Source of the DNA: Gemmatimonadota bacterium
GTDB taxonomy: Bacteria; Gemmatimonadota; Gemmatimonadetes; Gemmatimonadales; GWC2-71-9
Reading direction: 5' to 3'
Assembly (NCBI GenBank): GCA_039588295.1
Contig: JBDHAB010000028.1
Coordinates: 1 to 40,191, forward strand
Length of the DNA stretch: 40,191 nt
A program made the position numbers and the translations under genes. The notes below the pieces were generated by a model. The model searched no databases and had not been told where the DNA came from. It was given only the letters and a program-made list of their open reading frames with translations. Of the stretch, positions 30,168-40,191 are shown piece by piece. Positions within the stretch are counted from its first letter, which is position 1. Each line of letters starts with the position of its first letter.

Positions 30168-30177
30168 CGCCGAGCAC

Positions 30178-30293
30178 TTTCCCCTGGACACCCAGCTCCC
30201 CCGGGCGTAGCCTCCTCCCCAAGCGCTCGGCCTTGCCAAAGGCCGGCGCGGGGAGCGAAACCATGATTCCCATAAGCTCACGGCCGTGGAGCC
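30178..30293 (+). repeat. Copy 2 of the duplicated promoter plus gene-start unit (truncated paralogue)
   Basis: TGGACA-N17-TAGCCT versus TAGACA-N17-TAGATT in copy 1; MIPISSRPWS versus MTLSSSRPGS; similarity is lost after about 10-20 codons. Confidence 0.65.
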
Positions 30294-30467
30294 GGAGCTC
30301 CCAATCCTGCCGCCGTCGTCTCGGCGAGACGCCTCAGCATCTCCGTTCGCAGTCACCTCAACGTGCCCAACTCCTCCAACAAATGGGGTTGTCTAGTTAC
30401 GCTGCAAGGGTCGGGTGGGGAATTGCAGAATAGGTAGCTGTCACAGCCTCGAATCGGGGAGGATGAG

Positions 30468-32603
30468 ATGGCGGTCTCACGCGCACAGCTCAGCGCCGCG
30501 TCCGCGGGTCCCGCGCTCGCTGACAACCGGCCTCCGAGTTTCCTTTCCGTCGGTGATTCTTTGATGTGGGGACAGGGGCTTCACCCCGTCCACCGCTTCC
30601 GCGAGCTAGTACGTTCGCGCGTCGCGCGCGAGCATGGCGTCGTTGCCGAACTCGCGATGGCACGCTCCGGCGCCGTAATGGAGCCGCAAGGATCAGACGG
30701 CGGACTTCACGACGGCTTGCTCGATCCCGGAACAAATCTGTCGCCGTGGTATTCGCCGGAAGACTTCGCCCGCGAAATGCCCAGCAGCGCGATGTCGATT
30801 CAGCAGCAGCTCGAAACCGCGCGGGACCTTATCGATCAACACTGGGGAAAAGGCGCGCCGCACGACGTGCGCTGGATCTTGTTGGATGGTGGCATCAACG
30901 ATATAGGGATCTTCAACATTCTGACGCCGTTCCGCGCCGAGCTCGACGGCTATGCGCTGCGGTGTTGGCCGACCTGGCTGCTGGATCAAGCCGTGAGCAT
31001 CGAGGAACTGATGTTCGATACGCTCGATATCGCGCTGCGCAACTTCCCAGCAGCGGCGGTCGTAGTCAACGGCTACTTTCCCGTGTTCTCGCTCTACTCG
31101 GTGGCGTCGATCACCAAGCTGCAGAGTGTCGGCTTTCTACACGGAATTTCGAACCTCGTACTGACGTCGCCCTTTGGCCTCGATGCCCTGGCCAACGCTT
31201 CGACCGCTTGGCAGGCCGCCAGCACCCATCACCTGCGGCGCGCGATCCGCCGCGTGCTGCGAGTCCCCGAACACACCGCGCGCACCGTGCTGTTTGCGCG
31301 ATCGAACATCGAGGGGCCGCACAGTCTCTTTGGACCGAGCGCCTGGCTTTGGGGCTACGATGCCATCCCCGATGGCGTGCCCGAAAACGTCAGCCAGTGG
31401 GCCCAGTGGCTTGGCGGCGCCACACCGGAAGATGAGGTGATCCCGGAGCGCATCAGTCAGTGCAACGCAAACCAGACCAATTTTGGCGGGGCGATCACCT
31501 GTCGACTCGCTTCCATCGGCCATCCCAACATCCCCGGTGCCATCGATTACGCAGAGGCGATCATCGACGTGATGGAACGGGCGGGTGTGCTGCAGCCGGA
31601 CGATTCCCCCTGCTTGGTCGCGGCTCGCCGGCGCTTGGCAGCGTGCCGGCGTGCAATGGACGAGGGCAACTACCGGTGCTTTCGTCTCGATGCTCGTGCC
31701 TGCACGGCGTGTTCCCGGACGACGAATGCCATTGCGGGCGCAGCGGAGGGCCTGATCAAGGATGGCGCCAGTCGATTCGGCGAGGCCGGAAAGAACTTCG
31801 AGGACGCAGCCGCGTGCTTCGAGGACACAGGGAGCGAGATGGGGCAAGCGGCCGCGCGACAATTCACTGCTGCCTCTGGCAACTTCGCGGAGGCTGGGGG
31901 ACACTTCTCGAACATGGCAGATTGCTGGGACGACACCCAGGACACGTTCCAGGAGTGCGACGACGAGAAGGCGTCAAAAATTGCCGAATGCAATCGCGCA
32001 CATGAAAACCGCGTCAACACCACCTGCAACATACAGTGCAACAGCTTCACCAACTGCAATCGCTTCGGTCGATTCGATCCCCGCCGCTACGCCTGTCGCG
32101 CCGCTCGGGCCGTCTGCGTTGCGGCGGCGGCAACCGCACGCGGCGTTTGCAGAGCTGGCTCGGTGGCCATGCGCGAAGCCTGCAAGGTCGCCGCCGAAGC
32201 CGCGGCCGTCGTGTGCAAAGGCGCCGAGGTCGTGGAGAACACCGGATGCACGCTGAGCGAAGGTGGAAAGGGTATCTGGGAGGGCGTCAAGGGTGTCGGT
32301 CGCATGTTCGCAGGCGTTGGCGCCGCGATCGGCACCTTCGGCGGCAACCTCGGGTGCGCGTTCGGCAATGCCGCCAAGGGCGCCGGCAATGCGATCCTCG
32401 GCGCCGGTGAGGTGCTCCTGGGCGGCGCGGTCGGACTGGGGGCCCTTGGCTTCTATCTCGGCTGCAGCGGTACGCGCTGGGTATTGACCCGCTCCTGCCG
32501 AATCACACACTGGGCCGTCGGCGCCGGCTGCCGCCTGGGCAACGCCGTGCTGAGCACTCCCTGCGCAATCCGAAACGCCCTCACCCGACCCGGAACGCCG
32601 TAA
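30468..32603 (+). CDS. SGNH/GDSL hydrolase fused to a cysteine-ladder helical C-terminal region
   Basis: VGDSLMWGQG (block I), ARSGA (II), DGGIND (III), GHPN (V); 23 Cys in residues 382-699; GGGAGG RBS. Confidence 0.8.
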   Translation: MAVSRAQLSAASAGPALADNRPPSFLSVGDSLMWGQGLHPVHRFRELVRSRVAREHGVVAELAMARSGAVMEPQGSDGGLHDGLLDPGTNLSPWYSPEDFAREMPSSAMSIQQQLETARDLIDQHWGKGAPHDVRWILLDGGINDIGIFNILTPFRAELDGYALRCWPTWLLDQAVSIEELMFDTLDIALRNFPAAAVVVNGYFPVFSLYSVASITKLQSVGFLHGISNLVLTSPFGLDALANASTAWQAASTHHLRRAIRRVLRVPEHTARTVLFARSNIEGPHSLFGPSAWLWGYDAIPDGVPENVSQWAQWLGGATPEDEVIPERISQCNANQTNFGGAITCRLASIGHPNIPGAIDYAEAIIDVMERAGVLQPDDSPCLVAARRRLAACRRAMDEGNYRCFRLDARACTACSRTTNAIAGAAEGLIKDGASRFGEAGKNFEDAAACFEDTGSEMGQAAARQFTAASGNFAEAGGHFSNMADCWDDTQDTFQECDDEKASKIAECNRAHENRVNTTCNIQCNSFTNCNRFGRFDPRRYACRAARAVCVAAAATARGVCRAGSVAMREACKVAAEAAAVVCKGAEVVENTGCTLSEGGKGIWEGVKGVGRMFAGVGAAIGTFGGNLGCAFGNAAKGAGNAILGAGEVLLGGAVGLGALGFYLGCSGTRWVLTRSCRITHWAVGAGCRLGNAVLSTPCAIRNALTRPGTP

Positions 32604-32619
32604 TAATGAGGTGGATCCA

Positions 32620-32733
32620 ATGGATCAAGCCACAAAGAAGAGGTGCTGGTGCAAGCCCATCGGCTTGGTGCTTCTTGCGGCGATGATGTTCGGCCTGTAC
32701 CAAGCGCTCGTCTGGATCGCGGGTCTGTTCTGA
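32620..32733 (+). CDS. 37-aa single-TM small protein (below the ORF-track cut-off)
   Basis: GAGGTG RBS; MDQATKKRCWCKPIGLVLLAAMMFGLYQALVWIAGLF*; starts 16 nt after the SGNH stop. Confidence 0.6.
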   Translation: MDQATKKRCWCKPIGLVLLAAMMFGLYQALVWIAGLF

Positions 32734-32846
32734 GAAGCCTTGACGGGACGCCACGGTTATACATGGTGAAGGACGTCCGGGAGCTGCCCGTCGAGATCAT
32801 CATCGACGGCTCCAGCGTGGTGGTCGAGAGTCGCAACGGGTACTGA
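32734..32846 (+). pseudogene. Possible 3' gene remnant
   Basis: Protein-like, codon-biased frame LDGTPRLYMVKDVRELPVEIIIDGSSVVVESRNGY* with no credible start or RBS. Confidence 0.3.
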
Positions 32847-32871
32847 TACTAAGATGCGGGAGGATAGCTCA

Positions 32872-33597
32872 ATGAAACCCGATGGCAGGAGTGATCTTAT
32901 GGCGACCCTGCTGCAGGAGCAGGACCATTACCGTGCAGAAGTCCGCATGTTCGACGCACACTTCTTCAGAGTGTTGCTCAGCTATGCCACTGGTCTGATT
33001 GCCGCGTTTGGCTGGCTAGGCGCGCAAGTGCTCGAGCGGAGCGCTCAACTAGTCCAAGAGGCTGCGATGAGAACTCCACCTGTTGTTCTTCCACTCGGCC
33101 AGGCAAGCCAACACGTCTTCAGTGAGCTGTCGGATGGTCCATTCTTCTACCTGTTCAGTGGAGTACCGGCGATCACGGCGCTCATGTTCCTGTTCGTCGC
33201 GAGGGACTGGACAAGCTTGAACGAGAAGTTCAACCTTCTCAAGGGAGTCAGCGACAGGATTGCCGCGATTGTCGCCGGGGAAAGCTGCCCATCCGAGGCA
33301 CTTCTTCGTCTCGACCGGGGTTTCAAGAATAGGGGGCAAGGCTTGCGCAGAGGGGTAGAGAGCACGCTCTTCGTTTTTTGGTTTGCGGCTGCCCTCACAC
33401 TCTCGGTCATCATACTCCTTGATATTCACAAGTTCGCAGACGGTACAGCAAGGGAACTCTGGTTCTGGTTCGCGGGCTGCTTTGGGCTCCTCGTGGGAAT
33501 CGGAAGTCTATTGACGGCTTTGATTGCCTTCCGCAAGCGAGCGTATCAGGAAAAGCCCCGGGGTGCGCATGGTAACCCAGTCGAGGACGCGTCCTGA
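32872..33597 (+). CDS. Hypothetical 4-TM membrane protein
   Basis: GGAGG RBS before ATG 32872; four hydrophobic segments; lower GC than the flanks. Confidence 0.7.
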   Translation: MKPDGRSDLMATLLQEQDHYRAEVRMFDAHFFRVLLSYATGLIAAFGWLGAQVLERSAQLVQEAAMRTPPVVLPLGQASQHVFSELSDGPFFYLFSGVPAITALMFLFVARDWTSLNEKFNLLKGVSDRIAAIVAGESCPSEALLRLDRGFKNRGQGLRRGVESTLFVFWFAAALTLSVIILLDIHKFADGTARELWFWFAGCFGLLVGIGSLLTALIAFRKRAYQEKPRGAHGNPVEDAS

Positions 33598-33677
33598 CGC
33601 TAGGTTTCGAGAGCGTGTAGAATCAGTTAGGCAAGAGACCACCGCCCCGGGGCGAGCCTTGAGAGGAGAGAGTAAGC

Positions 33678-34586
33678 ATGAGGTTCATCAAACCCGCAGA
33701 GATTGCGTCAAGAATAATGTCCTTGATGGATGAAGCCGAGAATACGTTGATCATCATATCTCCGTATAACAAGATTGCGAAGTGGGAGAAAATGAGGCGC
33801 CTACTGATGGCGGTCAGCAAAAGAATCGACGTTGAGTACTACATACGCGCCAGGGTGCCTGGTAATCGGAAAGAAATCACTTCTATGGGCATCAATCCTG
33901 TTGAAATCGATAATCTCCATGCGAAGGTGTATATGAATGAGAGGTCAGCGATAGTCACGTCTATGAACCTCAATGAGTCGTCTGATATTCAATCGCTAGA
34001 CATTGGTTTCGAAACAGAGAACTCTGACGAGTTCGAACACGTAAAGTCCTTCTATCGTACCCACATTAGGCCCCGGCGCGGCGCGATTCTTGTCGAAGGT
34101 GCCTTTCGTGCGGGCGCAGTTGCTGACCAATCGGATTGTGTGAGTGCTCTGCAGGAATGTCTACACCGCGGCATGAAGAGCCGCGCGTTTGAGAGAAGCG
34201 GTGACGTCCTTGTTTTGAAAGACGCGTTCCTCAATGGTCTCAGCGTGAGGCTCGAACCGAGGTCTGGGTACTACAGGATTGACTTTCGATTTGAGTTGCC
34301 ACCCGATCGCAAGAGCTATCTCTTTCACGGACTTGAGGGGATGAGAGATCAGCTTGAAACGGAGATTGGCCACAACATCGAATTCGGTCGGCAGATGAAA
34401 CGAATCAAGATCGACGTTGGAAACAAGGGGAGCACGCGATTCGACTATAAGCATATAGGAGCTTGGGATCGGGGCACACTTCGAGATTGGCTTGGCTCCG
34501 AATACGACCAACTCGTACGGGTGTTCGTTCGATCAATCAACGCAATCGTGCCGAGAATCAAGAAGTTGGAAACTATGGCGAAGTGA
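33678..34586 (+). CDS. Phospholipase D-family (single HKD-like motif, nuclease-type) domain protein
   Basis: IIISPY and LHAKVYMNERSAIVTSMNL in the N-terminal ~130 aa; unknown C-terminal domain; visibly AT-richer. Confidence 0.8.
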   Translation: MRFIKPAEIASRIMSLMDEAENTLIIISPYNKIAKWEKMRRLLMAVSKRIDVEYYIRARVPGNRKEITSMGINPVEIDNLHAKVYMNERSAIVTSMNLNESSDIQSLDIGFETENSDEFEHVKSFYRTHIRPRRGAILVEGAFRAGAVADQSDCVSALQECLHRGMKSRAFERSGDVLVLKDAFLNGLSVRLEPRSGYYRIDFRFELPPDRKSYLFHGLEGMRDQLETEIGHNIEFGRQMKRIKIDVGNKGSTRFDYKHIGAWDRGTLRDWLGSEYDQLVRVFVRSINAIVPRIKKLETMAK

Positions 34587-34649
34587 AAGTGGATCTGACA
34601 CCGATTTCGGGATTGTCTCGAGAAGACGTGGGAGATAGTGACGCCAAAG

Positions 34650-35480
34650 CTAAATGGGATCGAGTTGAGGTAACGTAGAGATCACTTGGGCGTCCAGCCC
34701 CCGCCTGAACAACTCCTCCAACGCGCGCGGCCCCTCTTCGCCCATGTCCACCGTGTCTTCGTTCACGTACATGCGCACGAAGGCGCGGCAGGTCTCGCGG
34801 TCGATGCCGCGGCCGAATTGCATGGCGTAATCGAGGGCGTCGTCTTCGTGGGCGCGGGCGTAGACGATGCTTTCTTTGAGGGCGCGGGCGATGGTGTGCA
34901 TGGTTTCTTCGCCGAGGCGGCGGTCGATGACGTCGAGGCCGAGGGGAATAGGGAGACCGGTGTCGTCCATCCAGGCTTTGCCGAGGTCGAGTACGAGGTG
35001 GAGGCCGGTCTGCTGCCAGGTGAGTTGACCCTCGTGGATGATGACGGCGGCGTCGGCCTGGCCGCTTTGCACGGTGTCGATGACCTTGTCGAACGCTACC
35101 TGGACGGGCTGGAAGGGCGCGGTGACGAAGAGGCGCAGCAGCATGTACGCCGTCGTAAAATCGCCTGGGACGGCGATGCGTTTGTTCGCGAGGTCGGACA
35201 GGGTCATGGGCTGCGGCGCGAGGAGGACGGGGCCGTAGTTGCGGCCCACGGACGCGCCGCAGGACATGATGCGGTAGCGGTGGGCGACTTCGGGATACAC
35301 GGCGGCGGAGATGGCGGTCACGGGCAGCTCGCCCTTGCGGGCCTTCTGGTTGAGGGTCTGAATATCGGCCATCACGTGATCGACCTGGTAGCCGGGGATG
35401 GTCACGATCCGCTTGGCGAGGGCATAGAACATGAACGCGTCGTCGGCGTCGGGGCTGTGTCCGATGAGGAGTGTCTGCAT
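34650..35480 (-). CDS. mqnD: 1,4-dihydroxy-6-naphthoate synthase MqnD (futalosine menaquinone pathway)
   Basis: GHSPDADDAFMFYAL, DIQTLN, GASVGRNYGP, PGDFTTA, IIHEGQLT, LPIPLG, MYVN. Confidence 0.85.
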   Translation of the reverse strand: MQTLLIGHSPDADDAFMFYALAKRIVTIPGYQVDHVMADIQTLNQKARKGELPVTAISAAVYPEVAHRYRIMSCGASVGRNYGPVLLAPQPMTLSDLANKRIAVPGDFTTAYMLLRLFVTAPFQPVQVAFDKVIDTVQSGQADAAVIIHEGQLTWQQTGLHLVLDLGKAWMDDTGLPIPLGLDVIDRRLGEETMHTIARALKESIVYARAHEDDALDYAMQFGRGIDRETCRAFVRMYVNEDTVDMGEEGPRALEELFRRGLDAQVISTLPQLDPI

Positions 35481-35500
35481 AGGGCCTCCGGGAAAGGGAC

Positions 35501-35587
35501 ATGTTAGCGGACGGACGGGGAGTTGTAAACGGGGTTGCCGGGGTCGGGAGTGGTGGGATGGACAGTTGGGGGAGAGAGACGTAGACT
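35501..35587. promoter_or_regulatory. Divergent sigma70-like promoter pair
   Basis: Minus strand TTTACA-N17-TAACAT (35529-35501); plus strand TGGACA-N17-TAGACT (35559-35587). Confidence 0.45.
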
Positions 35588-35622
35588 GGCCGGGTGGAAG
35601 CTGGGTCGTGAATCACATGGTC

Positions 35623-36438
35623 ATGAGTAGCGTATCTGGATGCCGGCGGCGATCGCTGGGGAGAGTCTGCGCGGTTCTCGCGCTGGCGTTTGCCATGGCG
35701 TGCAGCTCGACGGACCGGGACTGGAGCGAGGCGGAGCGGGAGGGCACGGCGGAGTCGTATGCGCGCTTCATCAAGGCGCACCCGGATCACTACTACGCGA
35801 CGATCGCGCGCATCCGCATCGAGCTGGCGAAAGAAGATGGAGACTGGGAACGGGCGGTCGCGCAGAGCAGCCGCGAGGGTTACGAAGCGTTCCTGCAAAG
35901 CTGGCCGCAGGGGCAGTACGGCGCACAGGCGATCGCCGGCGTGGAGTCGCTCACGACGTCCACGGTTCGCCTGAGCATGCCGCGCCGCGCCACGCTGTCG
36001 GGGATGGTGTGGATCAGGGGCGACACGCTGGTCGCGCGCGAGGCGGCGACGGGGCGCGGGCTGCAGCTCCGGAAGTACGTGATCGCGAGCATCGAGATCG
36101 ACTGGGCGTACGAAGAGAGCGCGGTCATTTTCTCGCTGGACCCGACGGCAGACAGCACGGCGGCGCTGCCGGTCCTGAACCGCCTGGCGGCCACGCCGGA
36201 GGCGATGCGGATCCACCTGCGCGACGGCACGTCGGTCGCGGTCGATCCGACCACGGTCCGCCCGCGGCGACTGGAGCTGGACACGCGTCAGACGGTTCTG
36301 GGCTCGTCGCGGGAAGGGGACACGACGCGCGTGCACCTGCGCCTGGCGCCCTTCCGGCAGACGTACGCGCCCCGGGTCGTGCTCTCGGACAGTCTGCGAC
36401 TGGCGCCGGAAGAGATTCGCTTCGGCCCGGACGGGTAG
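35623..36438 (+). CDS. Hypothetical lipoprotein with two W..A.......Y..F....P helical repeats
   Basis: LALAFAMA-C lipobox; DWSEAEREGTAESYARFIKAHPD and DWERAVAQSSREGYEAFLQSWPQG. Start codon uncertain (35617 or 35623). Confidence 0.7.
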   Translation: MSSVSGCRRRSLGRVCAVLALAFAMACSSTDRDWSEAEREGTAESYARFIKAHPDHYYATIARIRIELAKEDGDWERAVAQSSREGYEAFLQSWPQGQYGAQAIAGVESLTTSTVRLSMPRRATLSGMVWIRGDTLVAREAATGRGLQLRKYVIASIEIDWAYEESAVIFSLDPTADSTAALPVLNRLAATPEAMRIHLRDGTSVAVDPTTVRPRRLELDTRQTVLGSSREGDTTRVHLRLAPFRQTYAPRVVLSDSLRLAPEEIRFGPDG

Positions 36439-36472: not shown

Positions 36473-37495
36473 CTACTTGCGGACGGTGAAGCGCGAGCGC
36501 GCCGCGATGGCAGTACGCTCGCCGTGGTGCGCCTCGATCTGTAGCACGTAGGCGCCGGCGGAAAAGCGGCGGCTGCGCAGGTCGAGGAAGAAACGGCCGT
36601 CATCGAAGTACTTCTGCGCGATGGTGTCGCGGAAGATCTCGACGGGCTGGTCGTCGGTGATCACGACCTGGTACTGGTCGGCGCCGGCGGCGACGCGGTC
36701 GAGGTCGACGGCGATCACGAGGTGGTCGATGCGGCGCATGTCGAGGGCGGCGTCGGGCTCGGCGCCGCCGCCGCCGCCGCGGGTGGTGAGGCGGATGGGA
36801 AGCTCCTGGACGGGCGTGCGGCCGGAGAGCACGTCGAGGGGCGCCCACTGGGCGGCGGGTCCGCCGGTCACGGTGCGGGAGGTGTACACGACGGCGACCG
36901 TCACCGCCACGGCGGCGGTGACCAGTGTGGTGGCGACGGCCGCGCGGCGCTGGGGCGGCACGATCGCCACGAGCTTCTTGAGCGCGGCGCCCACCGCGGC
37001 GAGTCGCTCGCGCCAGCTGGTGGGAGCGGCCGCGGAGGGGGGAAGCGGCGGCGCGCCGCTGGGCGCGCCCAGAGGAGCCCCCGCGCGCGCGGCGGCGCCG
37101 GCCGCATCCGCCAACTTGGCCGGTTCCCCCGACTCTGCCGTCAGATCGACGCGCGCCGCGAGCAGCGTCTGCGCGCGCTCGTAGTCCTTGCTGCAGCGGG
37201 GGCACGCGTCGAGGTGGGCCCAGATGGTCTCGTTCTCCTCGTCGCCGAACTCGGCGGGGGACTCAGCGAACTCGACGATGAGGCGCGCGGCGAGGTGCTG
37301 CTCGTCGATGCGCGCGCGGTGCGTCCGCAGCTGCTCGGCGAGCCAGCCGGTCTCCATCGCCTCGCGGCGACAATTGACGCACTGGGCGAGGTGGGCCTCG
37401 AGGGCCTCGTCCTGGTCCCTCTCGATGCGTCCAGCGGCCTGCAACAGAATCAGATCGCTGGCGTCGCTACAGGAAATGCCGGGCTCTTCGGTCAT
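36473..37495 (-). CDS. Transmembrane anti-sigma factor with two zf-HC2 (ZAS) motifs
   Basis: HLAQCVNC and HLDACPRC; Ala/Pro-rich linker; TM AAVATTLVTAAVAVTVAVVY; C-terminal beta-rich domain; lies downstream of an ECF sigma gene. Confidence 0.82.
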   Translation of the reverse strand: MTEEPGISCSDASDLILLQAAGRIERDQDEALEAHLAQCVNCRREAMETGWLAEQLRTHRARIDEQHLAARLIVEFAESPAEFGDEENETIWAHLDACPRCSKDYERAQTLLAARVDLTAESGEPAKLADAAGAAARAGAPLGAPSGAPPLPPSAAAPTSWRERLAAVGAALKKLVAIVPPQRRAAVATTLVTAAVAVTVAVVYTSRTVTGGPAAQWAPLDVLSGRTPVQELPIRLTTRGGGGGAEPDAALDMRRIDHLVIAVDLDRVAAGADQYQVVITDDQPVEIFRDTIAQKYFDDGRFFLDLRSRRFSAGAYVLQIEAHHGERTAIAARSRFTVRK

Positions 37496-37562
37496 GGCTG
37501 TCAGTTGATCCGCGGGCGATCCAGCGGCGATCGCCGGGGCCGCTCCCCCTTTCCCTATTCAG

Positions 37563-37588
37563 GTCGAATCATCCGCTTTCCCGTTACA
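37563..37588 (-). promoter_or_regulatory. ECF-type promoter candidate for the anti-sigma gene
   Basis: TGTAAC-N16-CGAC; the -35 element overlaps the sigma gene stop codon. Confidence 0.5.
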
Positions 37589-38147
37589 GGGCCTGGTCGC
37601 GAAGCGCTACGGCCCTGTCGCGGCAGCGTTTGAGCCGCACGCGCAGGTTCCCGCGCGAGATCCCGATCTCGTCGGCGGCCTCGTCGAAGGTGCGCTCCTC
37701 GAGAAAGAGCGCGCGAAAGAGCTGCTGGCAAGCCTGGCCGAGGCGCTGGAACACGTAGACAAAGAGCTCCTGGTCGGCGATGCGCTCGTCCGGGCCCGCG
37801 GCCGGATCGGCCGCGCCTTCGGGCGTGTGGGGCGCAGCCTCGGTGCGCTCGGCGCCGGGGTCGTCGCCGGGATTGCTGAAGATGGTGCGCGAGAGCTGGT
37901 GGCGGCGGTTGTGGTCGATCACGTGGCAGATGGTCACGCGCCGCACCAGTCCCCACAGATTCTCGATCTCGCCGGCGGCGCGCACGGTCTTGAGCACATT
38001 CAAGAGGCACCCCTGCCGCACGTCCTCCCAGTCGGGAAACGCGTAGACGCGGCTGCGCACGAGGGGCGTGATGCGCTCGCGCACGATCTCGGCGGCCCAG
38101 TCTTCGCGGGCGCGCAGTCCGTCCAGAATCTCGTCGTCGGTGCGCAT
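37584..38147 (-). CDS. ECF RNA polymerase sigma factor
   Basis: 187 aa; region 2 (DWEDVRQ...IDHNRR) and region 4 HTH (TFDEAADEIGISRGNLRVRLKRCR). Confidence 0.85.
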   Translation of the reverse strand: MRTDDEILDGLRAREDWAAEIVRERITPLVRSRVYAFPDWEDVRQGCLLNVLKTVRAAGEIENLWGLVRRVTICHVIDHNRRHQLSRTIFSNPGDDPGAERTEAAPHTPEGAADPAAGPDERIADQELFVYVFQRLGQACQQLFRALFLEERTFDEAADEIGISRGNLRVRLKRCRDRAVALRDQAL

Positions 38148-38205
38148 GGTCCGTGGGGCGCGCGGTCCTCGCGCGCGCCGGTCCCCCCTCCGGGGAGAGT
38201 AACCG

Positions 38206-40191
38206 CTACTCCCAGGGTCCGATCAACACGAATCCGGCCCAGTAGGCGGGGTGGGTGTAGGGGCGGTGGTCGGGGCGGCTCTCGTAGGCGGCCAGCGCCG
38301 CCTTGGCGTCGCGCAGGGCCTCGGCCTTGGGCATGGCCCGCTGGAGGAGGTTCTCGTAGAAGCGGGTCATGAGGAGGCGCGTGGGCTGGTCGGCCACGTC
38401 CCACAGGCTCACGAGCACGTTGCGCGCGCCGGCCAGGAAAAAGGCGTGGGCAAAGCCGACGTAGCCCTCGCCGCGCGCGTACGGGCCCAGCCCGCTCTGG
38501 CACGCGGACAGGGTGACGAGATCGGCGTCGATGCGCCACTCACGCTCCACCTCTCCCATGGTGAGGCGACCGTCGAAGACGCGCTCGCGCCTGGCGAGGG
38601 ACTGCATGGCGTCGGGCAGATCCACCTGCGAGAGCACGAGTGCCGTGCGCTCCGCGAAGCGCGCGTCGGCGAAGCCGTGGGTGGCGAGGTGGATGTGGCT
38701 GTAGCCGGCGATGTCCCCGCTGGTGCACAGCGCGTAGAGGTCGCGTTCGCTGGCGTGCGGGCCGTAGAGGAGCAGGTTCTCCGCGAACAGGGGCGCGATG
38801 GCCTGTACCTCGAGGCGGGTGCCGGCCAGTCGCGGCAGCTCGGCGATGGCCTCGCCGCGCCCCGCGGCGGCGCCGCGCGTGACCGCCTCGCTCGCGCGGG
38901 TCGGGCTGGCCTGTTCTTCCGCGGCGTCCTCGTCGCGCATGGCCTGGGCCTGCTCGGCGTTGAAGGGAGGATCGGCGAGTGCGAGGAGCGCGCCGTCGCG
39001 CACGGGGTAGGGCCGGGACGCCAGGTGGTGCAGCACGGAGGCCGAGGGCACGTAGGCGACGGCCGCGGCGTCGAGCAGCACGTCGACGGGTATGCCCGCC
39101 ATGTCACCGGAGGTGACGACGGCCAGGCGCGTCACCCCCGCGAGCGTGCCGGCCACGGGCGCGATGCGCGCCTGGTAGACGGCGCCCGCCAGGCGCTCCA
39201 AGTCACGGGTGTCGCGCGACGGCTCGGAGAGCGCGGCGCGCAGCGCTTCGAGGTCTTGGTCGTCGCTTGCCTGGTCGAGGCGGCGCCACTCGACGGGGCC
39301 GTGCCCGCGCACGACGTAGGCCCACGCGGGCGCCTCGCCGTCGATCCATCCCAGCAGCGCGTCGCTCGCACCGAGGGTGGACTGGACGTCGGCGAGTGCC
39401 ACCGGATCGGCGACGTGCTCGGTCGCGTGGACGCCGTCGCGGGAGCCGGAGCGCGCGAGCATGTCGTCCAGGACGCGCGCGCGGTCGCGCTCCGCGGCTT
39501 CCCACGCGCCGGCGGCATCGCCCGCGGCCAGACGCACGCGCGCGAGGCGTTCATACGGGGAGACCGCGTCGGCGAAGGCGGCGCGTCCCACGGGCCGCGC
39601 GCTCACGCGCGTGCGCGCCGTCTCGTAGCGCGCGCACGCATCCTCGAGGAGGCGCTCCGCCTCGTCGAGCGCGCCCGCCTCGGCGCGCACCGCGGCGAGC
39701 GAGGTGAGCGCGTACAGGTAGCCCTGGTTGATGCCGAGGTCGAACTCGCCGTAGACGTCGGCGGCGCGGCGCAGCTCGGTCTCGGCGTCATCGGCGCGGT
39801 CCAGCTCGTGCAGGAGCTGGCCCAGCCCCAGGTGCGCCTCGGCCACGTCGATGTCGTGCTCGCCGTAGGCGGCGGTGCGGATGGCGATGGTTTCGCGCAG
39901 CACGCGCTCGGCCTCCTCGTTCTTACCCAGCGCGGCGAGCGCGTTGCCCAGGTTGCCCAGCGGGGCGGCGGCCTCGCCGCTCTCCTCACCGAGTGCCGCG
40001 CGCTCGATGCGCACGGCGTCGCGAAAACATTCCACCGCCTCCTCGTAGCGGTGCAGTCCCACGAGCGAGTTGCCGCGCGCGTTGAGCGCGAGCGCATAGT
40101 AGAAGCTGTCCTCGCCGAAGCGCGCGCGGTAGATTGCGGACAGGTCGTCGAGGATCTCGAGCGACGCCGCGTACTGGTGCTGGTGGTAGAG
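38206..40191 (-). CDS. TPR-CHAT (caspase HetF-associated) protease, 5'-partial
   Basis: Frame open to the window edge. Kinesin-light-chain-like TPRs, then a CHAT domain with the catalytic dyad HIHLATHG and LVTLSACQSG, GEG, AGARNVLVSLWDV and HPAYWAGF. Confidence 0.93.
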   Translation of the reverse strand, partial: LYHQHQYAASLEILDDLSAIYRARFGEDSFYYALALNARGNSLVGLHRYEEAVECFRDAVRIERAALGEESGEAAAPLGNLGNALAALGKNEEAERVLRETIAIRTAAYGEHDIDVAEAHLGLGQLLHELDRADDAETELRRAADVYGEFDLGINQGYLYALTSLAAVRAEAGALDEAERLLEDACARYETARTRVSARPVGRAAFADAVSPYERLARVRLAAGDAAGAWEAAERDRARVLDDMLARSGSRDGVHATEHVADPVALADVQSTLGASDALLGWIDGEAPAWAYVVRGHGPVEWRRLDQASDDQDLEALRAALSEPSRDTRDLERLAGAVYQARIAPVAGTLAGVTRLAVVTSGDMAGIPVDVLLDAAAVAYVPSASVLHHLASRPYPVRDGALLALADPPFNAEQAQAMRDEDAAEEQASPTRASEAVTRGAAAGRGEAIAELPRLAGTRLEVQAIAPLFAENLLLYGPHASERDLYALCTSGDIAGYSHIHLATHGFADARFAERTALVLSQVDLPDAMQSLARRERVFDGRLTMGEVEREWRIDADLVTLSACQSGLGPYARGEGYVGFAHAFFLAGARNVLVSLWDVADQPTRLLMTRFYENLLQRAMPKAEALRDAKAALAAYESRPDHRPYTHPAYWAGFVLIGPWE

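Follow-up and report, generated by a model that had tools for sequence, protein, structure and literature searches.

In Myxococcus xanthus, DdvS, a sigma factor of the extracytoplasmic function (ECF) class, is partnered by DdvA, a membrane anti-sigma factor fused to a tetratricopeptide repeat (TPR)-CHAT protease module. According to the excerpts of PMC11506125 used here, the bulky TPR-CHAT of DdvA itself blocks RseP, truncated DdvA is destroyed by RseP, and fused DdvA forms are reported only in Myxococcota and one Comamonas. The same excerpts term a CHAT-driven first cut of an anti-sigma factor unprecedented, and describe it as untested for want of a known trigger. A stand-alone TPR-CHAT protease, Csx29 of the type III-E CRISPR systems, cleaves Csx30, which controls an ECF-type sigma factor. 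The other papers cited below were likewise covered in part, and our statements refer to those parts. In this study, we analyse a locus of a Gemmatimonadota assembly (GCA_039588295.1, here G000) in which a TPR-CHAT protease, an ECF-type sigma factor and a predicted membrane anti-sigma factor are encoded by three separate genes. The window, i.e., the whole stretch of DNA analysed, is 40,191 nucleotides long and constitutes the entire contig C28 (JBDHAB010000028.1); the 5′ end of the CHAT gene, which is open at the contig end, is thus absent from the assembly.

A description of such a split trio was not found in the open-access literature, within which the supplement on ECF classification was covered only partly. 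The trio is apparently an undescribed split form of a DdvA-type system; it is real and conserved, and the mechanism that we propose for it is plausible.

Three linked genes and their conservation

The three open reading frames (ORFs) are co-oriented on the minus strand in the order CHAT, sigma, anti-sigma, with intergenic gaps of 58 and 88 nt (Table 1). The CHAT protein matches PF12770 (E=9e-55, 186.6 bits against a cut-off of 24) in addition to TPR families, and its His505 and Cys564 stand in the usual motifs, together with the conserved Glu461 and Asp601. The 187-residue sigma factor matches PF04545 and no sigma2 Pfam family, and its TIGR02937 match (E=9.5e-11, 41.6 bits) falls just below the cut-off of 42.9; on these profiles it is a divergent ECF-type protein. 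Its homologs number 13, of which 12 share 39-94% identity with it. The anti-sigma factor matches PF13490 and has two HxxxCxxC motifs (residues 35 and 94), a single hydrophobic helix at about residues 186-204 and a C-terminal beta-sandwich. It has the layout of a class I zinc anti-sigma (ZAS) factor, in which Hx3Cx2C lies N-terminal to the transmembrane (TM) helix and the gene lies directly downstream of the sigma gene. Its predicted topology is N-in/C-out, and the ZAS domains would hold the sigma factor. A structural model of low confidence (mean predicted local distance difference test score, pLDDT, 54, from three sequences) consists of two helical ZAS units, a disordered linker, a helix and the beta-sandwich; residues 236-247 have pLDDT below 50, and the fold search returned generic domains of the beta-sandwich or Ig-like kind. 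The anti-sigma family has 30 matches. In many of its members (P0020-P0045), which are proteins of up to 515 aa, a single ZAS motif is followed, ahead of the TM helix, by a very long cytoplasmic linker that is acidic and rich in Pro. The original prediction, made from the DNA letters alone, had named the three linked products a TPR-CHAT protease with an intact His/Cys dyad, an ECF sigma factor and a membrane ZAS anti-sigma factor, and its coordinates, gaps and identifications all hold.

Table 1. Features of the trio on the window, as positions of the forward strand
Feature	Position	Strand	Basis
TPR-CHAT protease gene, 3′ two-thirds (661 aa of ~950)	38206..40191, open at contig end	-	PF12770, TPR families
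CHAT catalytic codons	His505, 38677-38679; Cys564, 38500-38502	-	usual motifs
Divergent ECF-type sigma factor, 187 aa	37584..38147	-	PF04545, TIGR02937, homologs
Predicted single-pass anti-sigma factor, 340 aa	36473..37495	-	two ZAS motifs, Ala/Pro-rich linker, TM helix, outer beta-sandwich
Tandem ZAS domains, HxxxCxxC at residues 35 and 94	37193..37471	-	PF13490, motif
Predicted TM helix, residues 186-204, basic residues before it	36884..36940	-	hydropathy
Candidate site of cutting or docking: Arg235/Arg239 and a low-confidence loop rich in Gly	36764..36793	-	pLDDT, family alignment

A survey of gene neighbourhoods, which had been proposed as a check on conserved linkage between CHAT and anti-sigma genes, supports that linkage. 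A CHAT search of 60 relatives returned 40 rows outside G000; three rows were merged into shared loci and two below the cut-off were dropped, which left 35 loci, whose genes were called de novo in the present analysis. The trio, i.e., a sigma factor, a single-pass partner and a long TPR-CHAT, occurs in 24 of the 35; five loci are truncated by a contig end, and six have no pair, most of them with other architectures. Among the loci free of a contig-end cut, the proportion is 24 of 30. All 24 trio sigmas match TIGR02937, 23 of them above the cut-off, and HxxxCxxC is kept in 19 of the 24 partners. Moreover, the trios include several sigma clades and at least three types of anti-sigma outer domain. 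Seventeen are co-oriented in the order sigma, anti-sigma, CHAT, and seven are convergent (one with an intervening gene). The trio-bearing relatives are kin to one another, and the trio of the window is only distantly related to theirs. A second trio of the same assembly (L040, G000:C88:1393-5609), also distantly related to that of the window, encodes a sigma factor of 229 aa, a ZAS-TM-beta-sandwich protein of 193 aa and a lipoprotein-like TPR-CHAT of 970 aa with the dyad. Two loci are irregular: the CHAT gene of L006 is split into two ORFs, and the Cys region of L034 does not align; these are pseudogenes or assembly errors.

The sigma factor of the window forms a long branch in the tree, its best identity to the sigmas of the relatives being 23%, and searches of first 150 and then 300 genomes from the phylum of the assembly did not find its subfamily. 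Sigma-based locus scans gave nothing in genome contigs or viral contigs and one locus, L004, in metagenomes. The direct gene context of the subfamily is L004 alone, a single 6022-nt Logan contig that is about 92% alike (91.7% nucleotide identity across 5.5 kb) and may be from the same strain as the window; the remaining context comes indirectly, from matching contigs. A sigma homolog and a CHAT homolog come from the same source and from contigs of equal size in two of four testable cases, at 39-47% sigma identity (P0006 with P0052, ENA, 5028; P0012 with P0055, JGI, 9443), and P0008 and P0010 have no contig match among the 120 CHAT matches listed of 481. The sigma homolog P0004 and the anti-sigma homolog P0037 are paired in the same manner (ENA, 2538), and 10 further anti-sigma homologs have no contig match to sigma or CHAT homologs.

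A CHAT gene might lie next to an ordinary sigma/anti-sigma pair by chance, since zf-HC2 proteins are common (61 of 61 genomes) and the CHAT-first order of the window is unlike that of all 24 relative trios. However, the linkage recurs in L004, at L040 elsewhere in the assembly and in 24 of the 35 relative loci, and it is therefore more than chance; the proportion among uncut loci and the contig matches at such low sigma identity point the same way. We regard chance adjacency as largely refuted and very improbable.

Predicted export, fold and a candidate cleavage site

The missing N-terminus of the CHAT protein was recovered from L004, in which the complete gene encodes 956 aa (P0017). Read by eye, this protein begins with a basic stretch, followed by a hydrophobic segment and a small-residue cleavage-like motif, and its start looks like a Sec-type signal peptide. 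A simple hydropathy rule detects an N-terminal hydrophobic stretch in 74 of the 103 CHAT homologs of at least 880 aa. Because the start of the ortholog is signal-peptide-like, the protease is probably exported to the periplasm, where it would face the outer domain of the anti-sigma factor. The catalytic residues (His800 and Cys859 in P0017) and Glu756 are invariant in 97 of 97 aligned close homologs; at the position of Asp896, 95 of them have Asp and two have Glu. A cultured example, P0172 (labelled Gemmatimonas aurantiaca GAU_0218), has the dyad. In total, 481 CHAT homologs match at E<=1e-40 among 7998 candidates scored. Searches of PDB sequences returned TPR proteins or chance matches only, with no CHAT alignment, and a plasmid search returned distant CHATs, with top rows at about 31-33% identity.

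In the AlphaFold2 model of the full-length ortholog (pLDDT 92.2, 97 sequences), a CHAT domain is joined to a long TPR solenoid. Foldseek places DdvA first (8rw5, E=1.5e-14), followed by separase and Csx29. After VIA re-ranking, the matches are peptide-binding TPR proteins, Csx29 (Z 28.1, root-mean-square deviation 9.8, 572 aligned) and the protease domain of separase (Z 24.8, root-mean-square deviation 2.9, 306 aligned). This likeness to Csx29, together with the long low-complexity cytoplasmic linker of the anti-sigma factor, would suit a Craspase-like system, in which a cytoplasmic CHAT protease cuts the cytoplasmic part of its inhibitor in an anti-phage response. The original prediction had transferred the Csx29/Csx30 logic to a locus free of CRISPR. 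The latter part of that claim stands: of the type III-E hallmarks Cas7-11 and a CRISPR array, the direct repeats of the window contain no CRISPR-type array, and searches of the 96%-complete assembly for RAMP and Cas1 gave no match. The cytoplasmic logic does not fit a protease that appears exported, as the signal-peptide-like start of the ortholog and the hydrophobic starts of most homologs suggest. Moreover, PADLOC gave no match for any of the three proteins, no defence-type Pfam family was found among the 31 neighbours scanned, and the gene upstream of CHAT in L004 encodes a secreted FlgD-Ig protein, not Cas. We therefore consider a Craspase-like role to be highly unlikely.

Arg-specific clan CD enzymes have an S1 pocket lined by acidic residues of helix alpha1 and loop L5 (PMC4357240, in part). 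Separase cleaves after Arg in unstructured chains by means of an Asp 41 residues past its Cys (PMC10317155, in part; the position of Cys2029 was taken from the PDB title). In the present CHAT family, the conserved Asp lies 37 residues past the Cys, and the conserved acidic residues would fit an Arg pocket, from which we infer a preference for Arg.

A candidate substrate residue was observed in the anti-sigma factors. The linkers of 21 beta-sandwich anti-sigmas were aligned (20 from the relatives and that of C88; two TPR-type, two helical-type and that of the window were excluded), and one linker Arg between the TM helix and the outer domain is aligned in 21 of 21, the rest of the linker being unconserved. 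When the linkers were shuffled and realigned, the figure was 5-18 across 100 trials, compared with the 21 observed. As controls, 40 unlinked zf-HC2 loci were taken, of which 31 were usable, mostly of one family. A narrower Arg motif, defined post hoc, is present in 24 of 26 linked anti-sigmas (14.6 expected) and in 17 of 31 controls (15.4 expected). In the anti-sigma family of the window, a variable loop is preceded by a stretch rich in Arg; counted by eye, 26 of 27 members have one Arg or more there.

On this basis, we lean, by a modest degree, towards the reading that the likely exported TPR-CHAT is a dedicated site-1 protease for the predicted membrane anti-sigma factor, acting ahead of RseP in a two-protein version of DdvA. 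At rest, the ZAS domains would bind the sigma factor, and the CHAT protease would become active only when its TPR solenoid is occupied by a ligand from the envelope or the extracellular space, perhaps a peptide or protein. The activated protease would then cut the anti-sigma factor after an Arg (Arg235 or Arg239 in the window) of the exposed loop that precedes the outer beta-sandwich, an RseP-type protease would cut the membrane stub, and the freed sigma factor would transcribe genes for secreted or surface proteins rather than known defence systems. The proposal that a CHAT cut frees the sigma factor, also made in the original prediction, is thus retained in part. A plausible cut site is present in partner anti-sigmas, but a cut in the outer part alone would be insufficient, and a second, RseP-type cut would be needed because an exported CHAT could reach only the outer part of the anti-sigma factor. 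A full-length match to an M50 peptidase of the RseP type is present in the assembly.

The proposed output is suggested by the genes next to the trios in the relatives. Most of their products are beta-propeller or Ig-like proteins that begin with export-like signals, and of 31 neighbours picked by hand, 22 have Pfam matches of the Big, TIG, FlgD-Ig, RCC1, Kelch, PD40 or BNR type. These neighbours point to surface or secreted proteins, rather than a known defence system, as the output of the sigma factor. They are also potential substrates if the CHAT protease is itself an output of the sigma regulon, i.e., an exported enzyme that matures or degrades secreted proteins without controlling the anti-sigma factor. 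The two of four sigma-homolog contigs without a match among the CHAT matches listed would agree with such a role, as would the fact that gene context is known for a minority of the CHAT homologs. However, in the seven convergent trios the CHAT gene is not co-transcribed with sigma and anti-sigma and is nevertheless adjacent to them, and the invariant Arg in an otherwise free linker would be left unexplained. This alternative appears quite unlikely to us.

Several observations weigh against a site-1 protease. Twelve CHATs that form one clade (loci L005-L015 and L019) keep the Cys but have another residue in place of the catalytic His (Tyr in 11 and Ser in one, L012). Eight of these 12 sit in full trios, i.e., in eight of the 24, and their partners keep the linker Arg. 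Cutting therefore cannot be universal, a trio can evidently work without the usual dyad, and docking may be as important as cutting. Dyad mutants of DdvA still repress in uninduced cells, and autoproteolysis was not seen (PMC11506125, in part). DdvA lies outside the VIA top 50 for the CHAT model and Csx29 lies inside it; because the Foldseek and VIA rankings disagree, the fold alone does not choose between DdvA and Csx29 or separase. The 21 aligned anti-sigmas are kin from one order, a hidden Markov model of the invariant-Arg family does not detect the anti-sigma factor of the window, and the family of the latter has no invariant Arg column, so that Arg235 and Arg239 are weaker candidates. A loose test for the presence of R[GAS] was rejected as non-discriminating (25 of 26 linked compared with 26 of 31 controls). 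Finally, the M50 match may belong to an organism other than that of C28.

With regard to the His-less loci, the gene after CHAT in all 12 encodes a Big_5 domain with an RCC1, Kelch or PD40 propeller. In addition, Asp or Glu follows the linker Arg in five of the eight anti-sigmas of His-less trios and in none of the 13 others.

A periplasmic guard or co-receptor role, for which RseB and MucB provide a comparison, would accommodate the His-less clade. The TPR-CHAT would dock via the Arg and shield the loop, a ligand would displace it, and general proteases and RseP would then act, its own catalysis being optional or self-directed. The retention of the Arg and acidic residues in the eight His-less trios is consistent with docking. 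Such a role also has precedents in the partial sources, in which the TPR-CHAT of DdvA blocks RseP by bulk and its catalytic mutants still repress (PMC11506125), and an inhibitory Arg loop can occupy the S1 pocket of clan CD enzymes, e.g., in the gingipain prodomain (PMC4357240). However, the His and Cys are kept in 97 of 97 members of the window's subfamily, and the loss of the His looks derived, since the His-less CHATs form a single branch (support 94/91). We consider a guard role to be possible but unlikely.

More broadly, and tentatively, at somewhat less than an even chance, the trios may represent a widespread, undescribed kind of signalling across the envelope. An exported relative of caspases, separase-like and specific for Arg, would be both sensor and site-1 protease, with swappable anti-sigma outer domains and a derived dead-receptor branch that reads the same Arg. 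If the site-1 reading is true, it would provide a function for a large set of exported TPR-CHAT proteins, the 481 matches above, and would carry signalling by the caspase family beyond immunity, to the bacterial envelope. The split form places the enzyme and the proposed substrate, with its candidate Arg site, in separate soluble periplasmic proteins, which makes cleavage assayable in trans, and the natural His-less trios are a built-in comparison.

Neighbouring genes and the contig

A lipoprotein-like gene on the plus strand (35431-36438), with no Pfam family, is convergent to the anti-sigma gene, stops 34 nt from its stop and is present in L004; it is a possible accessory or target. Approximately 4.5 kb of the window (30170-34693), encoding a GDSL-like protein that ends in a Cys-rich tail, a membrane protein and a protein with weak likeness to PLD/DrmC, are missing from L004, and the mqnD C-terminus at this junction is unlike that of L004. 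At 2-1425, nine degenerate repeats with a spacing of mostly 123 nt probably represent a protein of 41-residue repeats cut by the contig start.

C28 may be mis-binned. Its tetranucleotide deviation ranks 10 of 63, and no DNA close to it was found in 20 relatives. The relatives of the assembly belong to the order of Gemmatimonas aurantiaca, and ortholog proteins of about 92% identity are labelled Candidatus Krumholzibacteria. A second copy of moaA lies on C7, at 39.5% identity.

Comparison with known systems

The ECF54 group of Actinobacteria (PMC7826278 supplement, in part) resembles the present locus in that an ECF sigma factor has a conserved neighbouring TPR-CHAT gene, and proteolytic control has been suggested for it. 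In the parts covered of PMC7826278 and PMC8999054, however, ECF54 has no putative anti-sigma factor and is accompanied by a subtilase and a carboxypeptidase-regulatory domain, whereas the window has an anti-sigma gene, and subtilase or carboxypeptidase-regulatory genes are not adjacent to its trio.

The DegS/RseA/RseP pathway, the logic of which we take from the covered part of PMC10028731, shares a dedicated periplasmic sensor-protease, a single-pass anti-sigma factor and a site-2 protease. In place of an HtrA/PDZ serine protease, however, the site-1 candidate here is a cysteine protease of clan CD that has a TPR solenoid, and its gene lies next to that of its target.

The type III-E Craspase (Csx29/Csx30/CASP-sigma; PMC10028731, in part) also has an ECF-type sigma factor and an inhibitor that is separate from its stand-alone TPR-CHAT, in addition to the fold similarity given above. 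However, Csx29 is cytoplasmic and is activated via Cas7-11 and target RNA, whereas the CHAT here looks exported. Moreover, the inhibitor here is a ZAS-TM-beta-sandwich membrane protein and not a Csx30-like soluble substrate.

DdvA/DdvS (PDB 8rw5 and 8rot), the best Foldseek match, shares an ECF sigma factor, a cytoplasmic zinc anti-sigma domain, one TM helix, a TPR-CHAT with the His/Cys dyad and a proposed CHAT site-1 cut followed by RseP. The TPR-CHAT is periplasmic in DdvA, and its export is predicted here from sequence alone. The two systems differ in that no CBASS (cyclic oligonucleotide-based antiphage signalling system) or CRISPR genes were found nearby here, in the window and L004, where the upstream DNA is short. 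In addition, the anti-sigma factor here has two ZAS motifs and an outer beta-sandwich of its own, and DdvA is one fused polypeptide, whereas the window and L004 have separate CHAT and anti-sigma genes. Because the CHAT is probably periplasmic, we consider a split DdvA/DdvS with site-1/site-2 regulated intramembrane proteolysis, rather than Craspase, to be the closer model for this locus.

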